A stretch of 64,000 nt of DNA from Escherichia phage LorandFenyves_Bas91. The position numbers were made by a program, and so were the translations under genes. Every line of letters starts with the position of its first letter. The stretch's first letter is position 1. The notes under the pieces are model-generated. The model was not told where the DNA came from, did no database searches, and saw only the letters and a list, made by a program, of their open reading frames with translations. The stretch lies in the sequence record PQ850614.1, one strand, 5' to 3'. This document shows, one piece after another, positions 36,753 through 46,527 of the stretch.

Positions 36753-36956
36753 TTAGTAGAACGAACGAATTTCATCCCACACTTGTTCCTGTTCTTTCCT
36801 ATAAAAAGAAAGTTGGGTCTTGAACATCTCCACTGATGATTCAAAGTTTTTGGTTTGTGCAGCTTCAACGAAACGTTCATGTCGGTTGATTTTGCACCGT
36901 AGCATTAAATACTTGGCTTCAAGTCTCCGAAGAGCCTGCCTTTTCTCAAGATTCAC
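36753..36956 (-). CDS. hypothetical protein (67 aa)
   Basis: Track ORF on the same strand, between the GGCT-like and primase genes. Confidence 0.5.
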   Translation of the reverse strand: MNLEKRQALRRLEAKYLMLRCKINRHERFVEAAQTKNFESSVEMFKTQLSFYRKEQEQVWDEIRSFY

Positions 36957-37365
36957 TTTTCAGATACTCTGACCAGTCGCCAGATTCAACCAGAACATCT
37001 TGTTCTTCGTCGATATGATAAATCCAAGCGATAACAGTTTCACCTGAGTCCATCTTAACAGCAATCTGAGTACGCTGATAGAAGCTATCTTCAGGGCTAC
37101 GTTTGTTGTAACCTTCCAGACGGTCATACGGACCTTCCAGACCTGCTTTGTCAGTAGCAAACACTTCTACACGAACAGGATTATTGTTATTGCTGTGTGC
37201 GAGAGAGATGCTCGGGAAGTAGGAACCACCGTAACGGAACAGATCAAAGTTGTCTTCAGTCCAACCTTCACCAATTGACTTAGCACCAGCTCGGTCATTA
37301 ACTAAATAGTTAGCTTGACCACGACGAAGAGAACCATAAGTTGCTACGTAAATTACTTCTGACAT
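36946..37365 (-). CDS. gamma-glutamylcyclotransferase-like (AIG2/GGACT fold)
   Basis: VATYGSLRRGQANY ... YFPSISL ... VRVEVF ... YDRLEGY pattern. Confidence 0.75.
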   Translation of the reverse strand: MSEVIYVATYGSLRRGQANYLVNDRAGAKSIGEGWTEDNFDLFRYGGSYFPSISLAHSNNNNPVRVEVFATDKAGLEGPYDRLEGYNKRSPEDSFYQRTQIAVKMDSGETVIAWIYHIDEEQDVLVESGDWSEYLKSES

Positions 37366-37366
37366 T

Positions 37367-37576
37367 TTAAATACCTTTCCAGTCTTTCATGATGTTTTCA
37401 ATGTAAGCACACTGCTGATCAGTGGCTCCTGTTACAAACACTTCTAACCCCAACTGCTCACAGAAGGGATTAAGAATCAATATTCTGGTTTGCCCATACG
37501 AGTGATGCTCTCGGTAGATAACACACCCAGCATCCCATACAGAATCAATGGCTTTACTCAATCTTTCATGTTTCAT
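37367..37576 (-). CDS. hypothetical protein (69 aa)
   Basis: Track ORF within the ligase cluster. Confidence 0.55.
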   Translation of the reverse strand: MKHERLSKAIDSVWDAGCVIYREHHSYGQTRILILNPFCEQLGLEVFVTGATDQQCAYIENIMKDWKGI

Positions 37577-37629
37577 AAAACCTCCAGTTTATCCGAACTA
37601 GCCTCCTCTTTCGAAGAGGCTAAAGCAGA

Positions 37630-37815
37630 TTACTCTGTAATAAAGATTTTGATTACACCGCAGATTGCTGCACTTTCAAATACTGCAACAGCTTCACTTC
37701 CCTGAAAGAAGGCCACTTTGCCATCAGAGAAGTTAAACATGTCAGCATCTAGGTCCATAGCTCGCATATCACCAGCGTCGTTAGTATCTTTAAACAGAAC
37801 TTTATACTTATTCAC
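37630..37815 (-). CDS. hypothetical protein (61 aa)
   Basis: Track ORF within the ligase cluster. Confidence 0.5.
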   Translation of the reverse strand: MNKYKVLFKDTNDAGDMRAMDLDADMFNFSDGKVAFFQGSEAVAVFESAAICGVIKIFITE

Positions 37816-43540: not shown

Positions 43541-43549
43541 GATAACCTC

Positions 43550-44356
43550 TTATGCTACCTGAAGGAGTTTGATCTGCTGGTCAGCTTCTTTAACGTTGTT
43601 CCCGTTAATGATTTCATGAAGCTTCTCAATCGGAAGGCGAGAGTGCAATGCCATCAGAGTGGACATATCACACTGCTGAACAACCTTGTCAACCTGATCG
43701 TAAACAAACTTACGGTTTTCACGATCACTAATCCAGAAGTTAGACAGAGAACGGTATTCAATACCATAGTCTTTATAACGGATTGCAGATGCTTTACCGT
43801 AGAGTTCTTTACGGCGAGTATCTTTGTCCATAATTACTGCTGGGAGAGACAGGAAGTAGTCACACAGCACACCCAGCATCATCTGAGTTTGCAGAGTGAT
43901 ATCCAAAGCACCAACTACGCCAAGATGTACGTGACCACCGGCAGTACGAAGTCCCTTATTCTGAGAAGTCGGGGATGGGTTTTTCTGACCAGTGAAGGCG
44001 TTGAAATCAGGAGTGCACCCGAAGATGAACGCTGATTCATTAAAGGTCTTCATCTCTTCTTCAGTGAAGATGTGAGAGCTAACACCCGGAGCTGTTTCCA
44101 TGTCCAGTTTGTTCAGGACATTATTGGTGAGATCAATACCACGTTGCATGTTATCGTTAAACGCTTCAAAACCGCTCTGTGGGTCAATATCAAACTCAGC
44201 CAGTACGTTGTCCTCTTGGAGACGAACATCCTTAGCCAGAGCGATCTTATCGTCCTTAGAGCAGCCTAATAAACCGGCTACAGAAGTGATGATACCATTG
44301 CTAGTACGAACAAACATTTCAGGGTCAGAGCCGATAAGGAATTTGCGCTTAGTCAT
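43550..44356 (-). CDS. COOH-NH2 ligase (phiEco32-like type 2, GCS2 superfamily)
   Basis: N-terminus FLIGSDPEMFV and ...GGHVHLG... match my memory of the phage COOH-NH2 ligase family. Confidence 0.6.
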   Translation of the reverse strand: MTKRKFLIGSDPEMFVRTSNGIITSVAGLLGCSKDDKIALAKDVRLQEDNVLAEFDIDPQSGFEAFNDNMQRGIDLTNNVLNKLDMETAPGVSSHIFTEEEMKTFNESAFIFGCTPDFNAFTGQKNPSPTSQNKGLRTAGGHVHLGVVGALDITLQTQMMLGVLCDYFLSLPAVIMDKDTRRKELYGKASAIRYKDYGIEYRSLSNFWISDRENRKFVYDQVDKVVQQCDMSTLMALHSRLPIEKLHEIINGNNVKEADQQIKLLQVA

Positions 44357-45320
44357 TATAATACTCCACTAGTTCAGAAAAGAGAGATGAGATTGTGTTA
44401 CCAACTTCTTCAAGAGTAAGACCGGAATCTGCTCCAGTTCTTTGAATCAGTCGGGCTGTAAAGTTTTGTACTGTAATGTTTCCCAACTTGTCGTCTATTG
44501 CTTCACGTTTGTGACCATAACAGTTGGACCAGAGTCTTAACCACTCTGACATTGTTTCATACTCGTCCGGGTCTTGATCTTTAGCACGAGCAAATCTTCG
44601 TAAGGCATCTTGGTTATGGTTACGAACATAACCATTCTCGTTGTCGCCAACACCGAAGGGGTTTTGAACCCATACTTGCTTCGTGTATTCATCAGAGTCT
44701 ACAACCAAAGGAAGGAATGCTGCTGCTGACATATTGTTGTTAATAACAATAGAGGTGCTCTCGCTACTCCCATTGGCTCTTCCTCGTTGAGACCATCCAC
44801 CGAAGAAGTCACGACCCAACCCAGCTAACACTAGAGCGATGCCGATGCGTTTACGCTTCAGCCACTCTTCCCTGTCTTCAATTCCTTCTGCTAGGAAATC
44901 CATTCCACGATATTGCCCTTCCAGAATACTACGAAAGAGCATAAGTCCTGTGAAGATCTGATCTGCTGGATGCTCACGAAGGTTGACAGCAACACTATTC
45001 GCTGAAGTGATCGTAAATACGTCACGATAGCAAGACATGGAGTTCATAATGTCTGCTGTTTCAACCAAGTTCTTTTCAATATCAGATGCAACATGACCGT
45101 GAAAAGAGTGAGTCCAGTAATTCAACATCTCCAGTTGCAAGTTGATATCACGGTTGAAGCGACGATAACGCCCTTCTTCCGAGATAACTTCACCATTAAT
45201 GTCATTTACACACTGGCCTTGCATGTAGTTGTGGATACCGAAGCACCCACGACCTAAGAACTTCTGTTCCCCTAAATCCTGTTGAAGATTAAGAGGTACG
45301 ATCGTTGTGGAGATTGACAT
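44349..45320 (-). CDS. hypothetical protein of the ligase cluster (323 aa)
   Basis: Track ORF with an 8-nt overlap with the downstream ligase gene. Confidence 0.6.
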   Translation of the reverse strand: MSISTTIVPLNLQQDLGEQKFLGRGCFGIHNYMQGQCVNDINGEVISEEGRYRRFNRDINLQLEMLNYWTHSFHGHVASDIEKNLVETADIMNSMSCYRDVFTITSANSVAVNLREHPADQIFTGLMLFRSILEGQYRGMDFLAEGIEDREEWLKRKRIGIALVLAGLGRDFFGGWSQRGRANGSSESTSIVINNNMSAAAFLPLVVDSDEYTKQVWVQNPFGVGDNENGYVRNHNQDALRRFARAKDQDPDEYETMSEWLRLWSNCYGHKREAIDDKLGNITVQNFTARLIQRTGADSGLTLEEVGNTISSLFSELVEYYND

Positions 45321-45330
45321 AACTAACCTT

Positions 45331-46527
45331 TTATTTTCCTAAAAATAATCCGCTCATAATACCATCCCACTCAGAGGACGGAATCACTGAATACTCCGAA
45401 CTTTGGTCCAGAGTTCCGCTACTGAATCGCTGAACAATATTATAAATATTGAACATATCTTTAGTCTCAGCGCGATAAGCGTAGACTAATCTGTCAGCTG
45501 TTCTTTCATCTTTAGATACCCGACGAGCAAAGGTAACCAGAAGGTTGTCACCTTTGAGTATTTCTGACTCATCTTTTACTAGATCAGGGTGCATAACCGG
45601 CAAGAACATTGAGTTGTTCACTCGTAACTCTGCTGTTTCATCATTCTCATAATGAATCCATTTAAAATCTTCATCACGAAAGTGACCGCATCCATCTCTG
45701 TATGACTGTTGACGCCAAGGCACTTGAAATGCTTCAGCGTATTTATCAGCCATGCCAACCGTAAATAGTGACGCTGGGAAAATACAAGCATCCCAATCGT
45801 TACCAACCAGAGTTGCTTTCTTTTCGCTCAAGAGGTTAGTGTAAGTGCTAACCATTCGTGAGTAAACATAAGCCTGAAGGATTGTCCAGCCTTCAACCAA
45901 CCATTTATGGAGGAAGGTTTCAACTTGACTCTCTTCATCTTCACAATAGAAGGTTCGGTCTAACATCAAATAGAACAGACAACGATCAGCAGGGATATTC
46001 TCAGTTGCTACCCCCATAAAACCTTTATCGTGCCAGCGTAAACAGGAGGGACGATCTTTGTCCACAAATGCTTCCATAGCTTCCAGTACAGCACGAGGTG
46101 TGGTTCGGTGTTCAGGGTTTTTGTCGTTCCAACGTTCGATGTTATTTTTAGGAGGTGTGTCTTCATCTTCATATGAACACCAACTCAAAGCTTCAGCTAC
46201 GTGCTTTTCATCACGCCAACGTCTAAAGCCTAACATCTTCATATGAGTTCCAGAGTTCCAGATATGCTTAATACTGCTCATATCCATCTCTCGACTTAAT
46301 AAGAACTCTTCCCCATCAGCACTACGAACGTTAGCATCTTCATGCCACACTCGAACGTGCATGTTCCATCCATGAGTTGCCTCATACATGTTAGGGTCGA
46401 AGTAGTCATCATCTTCGTCGTCTTCATCAACGCCACCATTATAGTTGCGAAGCTGAAGGAACCCATAACAAGGAGGGTTGACCGTTAAAACATTACCTTC
46501 AGTATCTTCTAATGTTACTGGAAACAT
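45331..46527 (-). CDS. hypothetical protein of the ligase cluster (398 aa)
   Basis: Track ORF. Trp/acidic-rich, with no recognised motif. Confidence 0.6.
   Translation of the reverse strand: MFPVTLEDTEGNVLTVNPPCYGFLQLRNYNGGVDEDDEDDDYFDPNMYEATHGWNMHVRVWHEDANVRSADGEEFLLSREMDMSSIKHIWNSGTHMKMLGFRRWRDEKHVAEALSWCSYEDEDTPPKNNIERWNDKNPEHRTTPRAVLEAMEAFVDKDRPSCLRWHDKGFMGVATENIPADRCLFYLMLDRTFYCEDEESQVETFLHKWLVEGWTILQAYVYSRMVSTYTNLLSEKKATLVGNDWDACIFPASLFTVGMADKYAEAFQVPWRQQSYRDGCGHFRDEDFKWIHYENDETAELRVNNSMFLPVMHPDLVKDESEILKGDNLLVTFARRVSKDERTADRLVYAYRAETKDMFNIYNIVQRFSSGTLDQSSEYSVIPSSEWDGIMSGLFLGK

Follow-up and report, generated by a model that had tools for sequence, protein, structure and literature searches.

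Introduction

PuuA and PuuD of putrescine utilisation, BtrJ and BtrG of the butirosin pathway, and EgtA and EgtC of the ergothioneine pathway pair the same kinds of enzymes around a transient gamma-glutamyl group. Such enzymes also occur together in a gene cluster of phage phiEco32 (gp77 to gp88), which is flanked by the primase/helicase gene gp75 and by a run of small early genes. In the current study, we describe the counterpart of this cluster in a stretch of 64,000 nucleotides from Escherichia phage LorandFenyves_Bas91 (sequence record PQ850614.1; the whole stretch is called the window below), where it occupies positions 36946-46527 on the minus strand. We tentatively propose that the conserved genes of this block, termed the cassette, form a cytoplasmic pathway that operates at the metabolite level to protect, elaborate and then deprotect an amine.

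The cluster, which an earlier note on this DNA had pointed out, is already known, being the founding example of the Pfam family PF14395 and the source of that family's name, and so it is not a new finding. In three papers (PMC10580990, PMC5498523, PMC11945000), it carries the putative label 'peptidoglycan modification module', which comes from Iyer et al. 2009 and Hardies et al. 2013, and the block matches that module in gene content and order. The note was also right that comparative genomics had predicted phage clusters of this type, for which it named peptide tags or novel metabolites as products. Literature up to 2025 yielded no experimental characterization of the cassette, and in agreement with the note, no experimentally defined substrate or product was found in papers of that period.

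A widespread phage enzyme cassette

When compared with phage genomes by megablast, the region 36946-46527 aligned over its full length with vB_EcoP-CHD5UKE1 (98.7% identity), SU10 (98.3%) and phiEco32 (97%), all of which are members of the genus Kuravirus in the subfamily Gordonclarkvirinae. At this level of DNA identity (97-99%), gene order is the same in all three, and the only difference from the phiEco32 cluster is an added open reading frame (ORF) for 69 amino acids (37367-37576). By its sequence, the source stretch is a Kuravirus (phiEco32-like) phage, and the block is the counterpart of phiEco32 gp77-gp88. Every minus-strand ORF named in the note was recovered at its position.

Six protein families travel together in these phages, usually in the same order: a COOH-NH2 ligase, the gp85 family, an Amidoligase_2 ligase, a class II glutamine amidotransferase (GATase), an ATP-grasp ligase and a gamma-glutamylcyclotransferase (GGCT). 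In the Kuravirus lineage, a DUF7195 protein and the paralogues gp87 and gp88 are added to this core. The cassette is common to many phages that are not related to each other: this order is seen again in Kuravirus, Nieuwekanaalvirus, Moazamivirus, Privateervirus, Lahexavirus, Bruynoghevirus, Krylovvirus and Zobellviridae, and synteny therefore extends over at least eight phage genera or lineages, far above what chance would give. Alignments of the enzymes covered 9-12 lineages drawn from EP335, 7-11, Privateer, LAh_9, DL54, tf, CW02, RIO-1, O4, Vibrio 1.208.B and a Porphyromonas phage. All five enzymes, including both ligases, keep their catalytic motifs across these lineages, and the block is thus predicted to hold the chemistry needed to build and trim a gamma-glutamyl-type amide, as the note had suggested. 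Absence of the ATP-grasp or GCS2 catalytic residues, which the note had named as grounds for refuting its reading, was not seen.

Scanning IMG/VR with the ligase motifs returned at least 594 contigs, and gene content was counted in the best 80 loci. The COOH-NH2 ligase is found in all 80 of these loci, accompanied by Amidoligase_2 in 77, the GATase in 76, the ATP-grasp ligase in 72 and a gp85-family protein in 68. When applied to 185,579 species-representative genomes of bacteria and archaea, these patterns recovered only 49 loci, nearly all on phage-sized contigs of metagenome-assembled genomes. The COOH-NH2 ligase subfamily is therefore essentially confined to phages.

This distribution bears on the possibility that the cassette is a phage gamma-glutamyl cycle, which re-routes host glutamine, glutamate and glutathione pools for nitrogen or redox and makes no novel product. 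The fold classes of the cassette parallel those of glutathione synthesis and breakdown, given that these include a GshA-like ligase, a GshB-like ATP-grasp enzyme and gamma-glutamyl-cleaving enzymes. In addition, full cassettes are found in phages of glutathione-producing Proteobacteria, a glutaredoxin gene adjoins the cassette in RIO-1, and marine-phage papers list cassette genes as auxiliary metabolic genes. However, the phage ligases are not orthologues of host GshA or GshB, no NCBIfam equivalog was matched (none of the cassette proteins scored above cut-off), and a ligase subfamily all but restricted to phages is not what such re-routing would lead one to expect. The conserved non-enzymatic partners gp85, DUF7195 and gp87/gp88 also suggest dedicated assembly, and we see little likelihood that auxiliary metabolism is the purpose of these genes.

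Gamma-glutamyl removal as a probable conserved step

The gp77 homologue of the window (36946-37365, minus strand) is a GGCT/AIG2-fold gamma-glutamyl(amine) cyclotransferase, which confirms the fold that the note had assigned to it. The protein matches Pfam GGACT (PF06094) with E = 3.4e-17 and 63.6 bits against a cut-off of 22.8, and PHROG 2520 with E = 1.6e-44. Its YGSL motif (Y10, G11, L13) and the catalytic E84 are invariant in 9 lineages. We predict that this enzyme serves in deprotection or trimming.

Zobellviridae and most environmental cassettes carry a gene for a Peptidase_C26 protein of 200-220 amino acids (a gamma-glutamyl hydrolase of the class I GATase fold), located directly upstream of the COOH-NH2 ligase gene and present in 44 of the 80 loci. 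Dereplication of these loci at 90% ligase identity, with complete flanks required, left 50 cassettes, of which 30 carry C26 only, 16 carry GGCT only, two carry both and two carry neither. The association of the two genes is strongly negative (Fisher p = 4e-9, n = 50, with phylogeny not corrected for). Within the Zobellviridae, C26 is found in O4, GGCT in RIO-1 and Vibrio 1.208.B, and both genes together in CW02.

C26 hydrolases and GGCT-fold cyclotransferases have unrelated folds, and both cleave L-gamma-glutamyl amides that bear a free alpha-amine, as is evident from the enzymology of PuuD-type and of GGCT-, GGACT- and BtrG-type enzymes. Given that proteins with a common activity but unrelated folds replace each other in the cassette, removal of an L-gamma-glutamyl group is probably one of its conserved steps. 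The class II glutaminase is present in cassettes of both kinds, constantly adjoining Amidoligase_2, and its role is therefore separate from that of C26 or GGCT. It could supply ammonia from glutamine to a ligase, or it could act as an EgtC-like amidohydrolase.

The identity of the trimmed group also matters for the published hypothesis (Iyer et al. 2009; Hardies et al. 2013; both through citing papers), in which the ligases would add or alter stem-peptide amides of cytoplasmic UDP-MurNAc-peptide or lipid II, with a changed wall that blocks superinfection or prepares lysis. The ATP-grasp ligase is indeed similar to D-Ala-D-Ala ligase. The combination of an amidoligase with a glutaminase likewise resembles the amidation logic of MurT/GatD. 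However, the best-conserved trimming step fits the stem peptide poorly: this peptide carries D-isoglutamate acylated by L-Ala, and GGCT and C26 require an L-gamma-glutamyl group with a free alpha-amine. Moreover, domain searches revealed no Mur-ligase, transpeptidase or envelope-targeting feature in the cassette, and the papers found contain no supporting experiment. We consider modification of peptidoglycan precursors to be rather improbable.

The two ligases and their small partners

The Amidoligase_2 carboxylate-amine ligase, a gp84 homologue, is encoded at 41823-42926 on the minus strand, where the note had recognized an amidoligase-type protein. It matches PF12224 (E = 4.5e-8; 33.7 bits, gathering cut-off 22) and PHROG 7469 (E = 1e-158). 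Residues G29, E31, E35, D50, S52, E58, H95, H97, R130, E186 and R188 are invariant in 12 sequences, and E33 is kept along with the motifs D50-G-S-L-R, H95-x-H97 and E186-x-R188. According to its Pfam description, Amidoligase_2 has neighbours that include a GATase-like protein or an AIG2 cyclotransferase; in the window, the GATase is adjacent and the GGCT lies within the same block. Amidoligase_2 adjoins the GATase in 76-77 of the 80 viral loci, such that the two-protein pairing of glutaminase and ligase is nearly universal across cassettes.

The second ligase (43550-44356, minus strand) is the gp86 homologue, a phiEco32-type COOH-NH2 ligase type 2. Its match to PF14395 (E = 2.3e-8; 34 bits, cut-off 25) and its 99.6% identity to phiEco32 gp86, the founding member, leave the assignment made in the note intact. 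D11, E13, D49, E54, H142, H144, R182, E200 and R202 are invariant in 10-11 lineages. The two ligase families are weakly linked to each other through an R-x-x-H-V-H motif (hhalign E = 0.019), and searches of both against PDB chains, by sequence and by family profile, found nothing.

Constantly located between the two ligase genes is that of the 205-amino-acid gp85-family protein (42923-43540, minus strand). This family is small: a full-library profile search of 1.84 billion proteins found 64 representatives, all of which stand alone. The few longer profile matches contain no Pfam domain, and one of 781 amino acids is a repeat artefact; a word-indexed search found close relatives only. The structural model of gp85 is poor, with moderate confidence only for an N-terminal SH3/Tudor-like barrel, and the protein is probably a non-catalytic adaptor.

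The DUF7195 protein (gp82 homologue, 77 amino acids; 39477-39710, minus strand) matches its Pfam family with E = 4.7e-17. Its gene is constantly located between those of the GATase and the ATP-grasp ligase in enteric, Aeromonas and Pseudomonas cassettes, and an iterative hidden Markov model (HMM) search found the protein in 7-11, Privateer, LAh_9, EP335, tf and DL54. We predict that it is an accessory subunit. A role as a LysW- or BtrI-like carrier was considered and ruled out on the basis that no acceptor residue is conserved: in the alignment, the C-termini vary and contain neither an invariant acidic residue or Glu nor an invariant Ser.

The glutaminase and its start codon

The class II, or N-terminal nucleophile (Ntn), GATase of the cassette is the gp83 homologue at 39713-41743 on the minus strand (GATase_6, E = 1.1e-14). 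Mechanical ORF calling misplaces its start to a TTG at 41404. The reading frame is open from a stop codon at 41746-41748. An ATT codon (41743-41741) is followed at once by TGT, which codes for Cys, and 7 nucleotides upstream of the ATT lies a Shine-Dalgarno sequence (AGGTGGA). A class II amidotransferase requires Cys as its first mature residue, and therefore 41743 is the correct start. The phiEco32 record annotates the same coding sequence of 2031 nucleotides, which further supports the coordinates that the note had given.

The sequence M-C-G is kept in every lineage that has a callable glutaminase start, and the start codon is ATG in all other lineages. The window, phiEco32, EP335 and two IMG/VR contigs (loci L017 and L023) do not differ at all in the 25 nucleotides that precede the ATT (GTTTACCCTTCAGGTGGATTAGAAA), although the proteins around this stretch are only about 70% identical. 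These nucleotides belong to an intergenic leader (41744-41822) with two small hairpins and the Shine-Dalgarno sequence, and this leader of about 80 nucleotides is kept nearly complete between the window and EP335. The conserved ATT codon and leader suggest that translation of the glutaminase may be controlled.

The GATase domain (about 41054-41743, minus strand) begins at the ATT codon, and Cys heads the mature protein. All 11 lineages compared keep this residue (Cys1) unchanged, together with the motifs RG.H(S/A)TG, GH.R.AT.G, AHPF, HNG and VDS. When aligned with GlmS (1xff), the domain retains the equivalents of R26, R73, N98-G99 and D123, which hold the alpha-amino and alpha-carboxylate groups of glutamine. 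The match to EgtC in NCBIfam is weak (E = 2.5e-4, far under the cut-off), and a PDB sequence search with the glutaminase gave weak local matches only.

The note had described this protein as an amidotransferase fused to three Zn-ribbons. The GATase domain is present, as are three Cys4 motifs at residues 440-467, 487-515 and 641-671 (40343-40426, 40199-40285 and 39731-39823, minus strand), to which no Pfam zinc-finger model matches, and so the term 'Zn-ribbon' goes further than the searches do. No Pfam domain was found in the C-terminal 430 amino acids, and thus no fused acceptor (synthase) domain is evident. The acceptor of the ammonia is presumably the neighbouring Amidoligase_2, unless the glutaminase acts as a hydrolase.

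In EP335 (locus L011, NC_070979.1), the RefSeq glutaminase gene (9350-11194) starts downstream of the ATT codon and thereby loses the catalytic Cys1, and the Amidoligase_2 gene (8001-9101) is named 'L-glutamine-D-fructose-6-phosphate aminotransferase-like'. Both look like annotation errors that have spread through PHROG-based names.

The ATP-grasp ligase

The gp80 homologue (38067-39269, minus strand) is best described as a RimK-like ATP-grasp ligase with reservations about family membership. In favour of the description given in the note are its match to PHROG 2599 (E = 1e-189) and its catalytic residues: K85, E157, R159, R190, N191, D229, E241 and N243 do not vary among 11 lineages, and this set includes the Lys that binds ATP (K85), the E-x-R strand (E157 and R159) and the Mg ligands (D229, E241 and N243). 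Over the EVNtaPGL motif, which binds Mg, the protein can also be aligned locally with RimK and Ddl structures. However, it falls under curated cut-offs, scoring 15.9 bits against 21 for Pfam RimK (E = 0.01) and 31.6 against 143 for TIGR00768 (E = 1e-7, local). The Privateer orthologue does pass Pfam RimK, with 33.7 bits.

The architecture consists of a core (about residues 1-270), an acidic linker and a C-terminal module of about 80 amino acids, and so the linker and extra module reported in the note are both present. The module (residues 319-400) matches PHROG 20552 and also exists as a stand-alone protein. Pfam searches with isolated modules, namely the C-termini of the ATP-grasp ligase, the glutaminase and the amidoligase and the extensions in 7-11, LAh_9, Privateer and RIO-1, were empty. 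The linker is variable except for a (D/A)DENFAL(S/A) motif at residues of about 293-300 (approximately 38370-38395, minus strand), which is conserved in the window, EP335 and 7-11 and may be a docking peptide for a partner protein.

A proposed pathway

On the basis of these features, a four-step scheme can be proposed. An ATP-dependent ligase resembling glutamine synthetase (GS) would join the gamma-carboxyl group of L-glutamate to an amine-bearing substrate. The second ligase and the adjacent glutaminase would then act together, with ammonia from glutamine amidating a carboxylate, or the glutaminase would serve as an EgtC-like gamma-glutamyl amidohydrolase. In the third step, the ATP-grasp ligase would add an alpha-linked amino acid, probably glutamate. 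Finally, the GGCT-fold enzyme would strip the gamma-glutamyl group as 5-oxoproline, freeing the finished amine. We infer the order of these steps, as well as which ligase makes the gamma-glutamyl bond.

The cassette proteins lack signal peptides and transmembrane or hydrophobic segments, and the enzymes are predicted to be acidic and soluble. The chemistry is therefore expected to be cytoplasmic. Minimal cassettes of the Zobellviridae encode an ATP-grasp ligase of 230-265 amino acids and a GATase of about 410-450, both without targeting-like extra domains. Because these minimal forms have no targeting module and DUF7195 has no carrier features, a small-molecule substrate is favoured over a macromolecular one, although this is the weakest step of our argument.

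Several points weigh against the proposed pathway. The pathway is incomplete, given that gp87, gp88 and gp85 have no assigned activity, and the fold of both ligases rests on Pfam family matches, with PDB profile searches being empty. The mutual exclusivity of C26 and GGCT was established with no correction for phylogeny, and most C26 cassettes may belong to one large clade. In addition, approximately 9 kb separate the GGCT gene from the ligase genes in 7-11, and two Privateer-like loci showed no GGCT gene within 10 kb. Lastly, the ATP-grasp ligase, gp85 and the GATase of the window carry small beta-barrel or Cys4 modules of a kind that often binds macromolecules.

These modules would suit another reading, in which the RimK-like and GS-like ligases place glutamate-rich or other peptide tags on a host or phage protein, such as S6, RNA polymerase or a replication protein, with the glutaminase and GGCT trimming the tags. 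The nearest solved relatives of the ATP-grasp ligase are RimK alpha-L-glutamate ligases, and the acidic linker with its DENFAL motif, the C-terminal module, the SH3/Tudor-like barrel of gp85 and the Cys4 motifs of the GATase are typical macromolecule-binding parts. Pfam also describes the neighbours of Amidoligase_2 as thiol peptidases. Furthermore, the cassette resides among takeover and replication genes and beside the gene for the RNA-polymerase regulator gp79. On the other hand, minimal cassettes do without targeting-like modules, DUF7195 has at its C-terminus neither the conserved acidic residue nor the Ser that a carrier or acceptor should have, and the groups cleaved by GGCT and C26 are gamma-glutamyl groups whose alpha-amine is free, not alpha-linked poly-Glu tails. 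Protein tagging is thus plausible, above all in the Kuravirus lineage, although in our judgement its probability is low.

gp87, gp88 and the question of DNA modification

The genes for gp87 (323 amino acids; 44349-45320, minus strand) and gp88 (398 amino acids; 45331-46527, minus strand) end the block on its upstream side. A 'PAD[QRK]..F..L.L.R[ST]' motif is common to gp87, gp88 and their positional counterparts in LAh_9, 7-11 and Privateer. Profile links within this group are weak but consistent (hhalign E = 1e-3 to 9e-5), including that between gp87 and the 7-11/Privateer group (E = 9e-4). We conclude from these profile comparisons that gp87 and gp88 are distant paralogues within one divergent family, which is confined to phages and is found with the cassette in those of enteric bacteria and Aeromonas. 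Proteins of about 300 amino acids at the same position in Pseudomonas phages (families f30 and f33) were considered as further members and rejected, as hhalign gives no support.

The note had listed the proteins of 205, 323 and 398 amino acids as lacking any recognizable motif. This does not hold for the latter two, which share the PAD motif. The confident structural model of gp88 corresponds to no known fold, and neither gp87 nor gp88 has a fold match in the PDB.

A base-directed role for these proteins would be of interest with respect to the restriction resistance of Gordonclarkvirinae, which is so far unexplained (PMC11990801). If the cassette attached an amino-acid-derived group to a base or to the nucleotide pool, this resistance might result. 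In most lineages, the cassette is located directly upstream of primase-helicase and DNA-polymerase genes, and genes for a dCTP deaminase, ThyX and a nucleotidyltransferase are nearby. However, linkage with replication genes may simply be inherited with a common replication module, and domain searches of the cassette proteins found no hydroxymethylase, 5-hydroxymethyldeoxyuridine kinase, aGPT-Pplase, DpdA, glycosyltransferase or DNA-binding domain. Of 16 restriction enzymes, 11 cut the DNA of U17, a LUZ24-like phage that bears the cassette, and none of the other three phages in that comparison was as sensitive (PMC11945000). The authors of the BASEL study also point to the Dcd/nucleotidyltransferase locus rather than to the cassette (PMC11990801).

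Thus, the nucleotide- or DNA-directed option that the note had raised on account of nearby ThyX, Dcd and PhoH genes gains no support from gene content and is weakened by the sensitivity of U17. We regard hypermodification of this type as very unlikely. More specifically, the chance is slimmer still that a DNA or deoxynucleotide adduct is made via a transient gamma-glutamyl intermediate, with gp87 and gp88 directed at the base, and that this adduct underlies the resistance of Gordonclarkvirinae.

Outside the block, a gene for a nucleotidyltransferase of 472 amino acids (33022-34440, minus strand; class II CCA-adding-enzyme-like in SU10) adjoins the dCTP deaminase gene (32479-33012, minus strand). 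This is the type of locus that, according to the BASEL authors, may underlie DNA modification and restriction resistance in Gordonclarkvirinae (PMC11990801).

Passenger genes, boundaries and expression

The note had treated the block as a single unit of nine or more genes. However, the block also contains the gene for gp79 and three small ORFs that are confined to close relatives, and these four are interspersed passengers rather than genes for amide chemistry. The ORF for 69 amino acids (PHROG 13365; 37367-37576, minus strand) lies outside the conserved cassette. It is missing in phiEco32 and present in SU10, EP335 and Salmonella phage 7-11 (60% identity), and is a small gene that is either mobile or variably retained. 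The 61-amino-acid gp78 homologue (PHROG 8591; 37630-37815, minus strand) is lineage-specific, and the 74-amino-acid gp81 homologue (PHROG 13464; 39272-39496, minus strand) is specific to Gordonclarkvirinae. Among the compared loci, each was found only in phiEco32 and EP335, the latter ORF also by iterative HMM search.

The product of the 82-amino-acid ORF at 37812-38060 (minus strand) is 100% identical to phiEco32 gp79 and matches 'gp79' in PDB entry 9m7y (chain G) over residues 1-82 with E = 1.1e-51. This regulator binds the host RNA polymerase, from which it displaces sigma70, to the advantage of the phage sigma factor that it stabilizes (PMC12276001; PMC8948821). Since gp79 has been classed among the middle-gene products, expression of the block probably falls in the early to middle phase of infection. 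The gp79 gene is embedded between those of the GGCT and the ATP-grasp ligase, and phages 7-11 and GAP52 have the cassette without gp79.

The boundaries agree with those in the note. A primase-helicase gene (34936-36726) is located downstream of the block, and a terminator-like hairpin followed by a T-run (47100-47083, minus strand) forms its upstream limit. The first gene after this terminator codes for a basic protein of 120 amino acids, the gp89 homologue (46539-46901, minus strand). It is co-conserved with gp88 only in Gordonclarkvirinae-like contigs, and its membership in the cassette is uncertain.

The gp36-type promoter of phiEco32 (TAATGTATA) has no exact match within 36946-47100, and so there is apparently no middle or late promoter that belongs to the cassette itself. 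Exact matches in the window are those at 11329, 21160, 21232, 27705 and 59046, and the total count of matches with at most one mismatch is not above chance. Sigma70-like matches are fewer in the block than in shuffled sequence. A dedicated cassette promoter was considered and rejected on these grounds.

Other features of the genomic surroundings can be noted briefly. Genes for NAD salvage, namely nicotinamide phosphoribosyltransferase and ribose-phosphate pyrophosphokinase, flank the cassette in 7-11 (locus L003, 14-1684) and in LAh_9 (locus L004, 13130-13933 and 14619-16268), and are not found in the Kuravirus window. An Rfam search found a tRNA alone, which is a single tRNA-Arg with anticodon TCT (51014-51089, minus strand) that is the same in phiEco32, and a PADLOC search gave no match. 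The sign of the GC skew flips at approximately 16000 and 62000, in line with the change of direction between the late genes, which run rightward, and the early and middle genes, which run leftward.

Significance

The cassette is among the most widespread enzyme sets of unknown purpose in tailed phages. Its marker ligase is found in phages of E. coli, Salmonella, Proteus, Aeromonas, Pseudomonas, Vibrio and marine bacteria, and the putative 'cell-wall modification' label is more than a decade old. Identification of the substrate would probably bring to light a metabolite or modification that is made by phages and is new, and would give functions to two Pfam ligase families, DUF7195 and two phage-only families, one of which has no known fold. 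Replacement of GGCT by C26 narrows the search to L-gamma-glutamyl amides. The question is experimentally tractable, given that a close BASEL relative, SkaterBoy_Bas90 (97% identical), infects E. coli K-12 with restored O-antigen. The window adds no new member to the cassette; the additions made here are the separation of passengers, the paralogy of gp87 and gp88, the exchange of GGCT and C26, the near-universal pairing of glutaminase and ligase, and the conserved ATT start with its leader.

Comparison with known systems

The putrescine utilisation pair PuuA/PuuD combines an ATP-dependent ligase of the GS superfamily with a gamma-glutamyl-cleaving enzyme, as does the cassette. PuuD is a C26 enzyme like that of most environmental cassettes, whereas the window has GGCT instead. 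The phage ligases belong to other families (PF12224 and PF14395), and the cassette lacks the oxidase and dehydrogenase of the putrescine pathway.

A similar likeness exists with BtrJ/BtrG of butirosin, in which an ATP-grasp ligase is matched with a cyclotransferase of the AIG2/BtrG-like kind and the gamma-glutamyl group that the latter removes is a protective one; the GGCT homologue of phage tf is annotated as BtrG-like. However, the cassette includes no acyl carrier protein or acyltransferase, and DUF7195 lacks carrier features. With EgtA/EgtC of ergothioneine, the cassette shares a class II Ntn enzyme that has an intact glutamine/gamma-glutamyl site and is encoded near a GS- or GCS-like (glutamate-cysteine ligase-like) enzyme. 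Equivalents of EgtB, EgtD and EgtE are lacking, and the phage glutaminase differs in having a large C-terminal extension with Cys4 motifs.

RimK, the S6 alpha-L-glutamate ligase, is the closest solved relative of the ATP-grasp core and has the same Mg and ATP residues. Unlike RimK, the phage enzyme carries an acidic linker and a C-terminal module, and the match is local and under family cut-offs. Two-protein amidotransferases of the MurT/GatD type provide a further parallel, given that the ligase of the cassette invariably adjoins the glutaminase, which suggests that ammonia may be transferred in trans. The parts themselves are different: a Mur-ligase (MurT) and a class I GATase (GatD) on the one side, and a GS-like ligase and a class II Ntn glutaminase in the phage pair.

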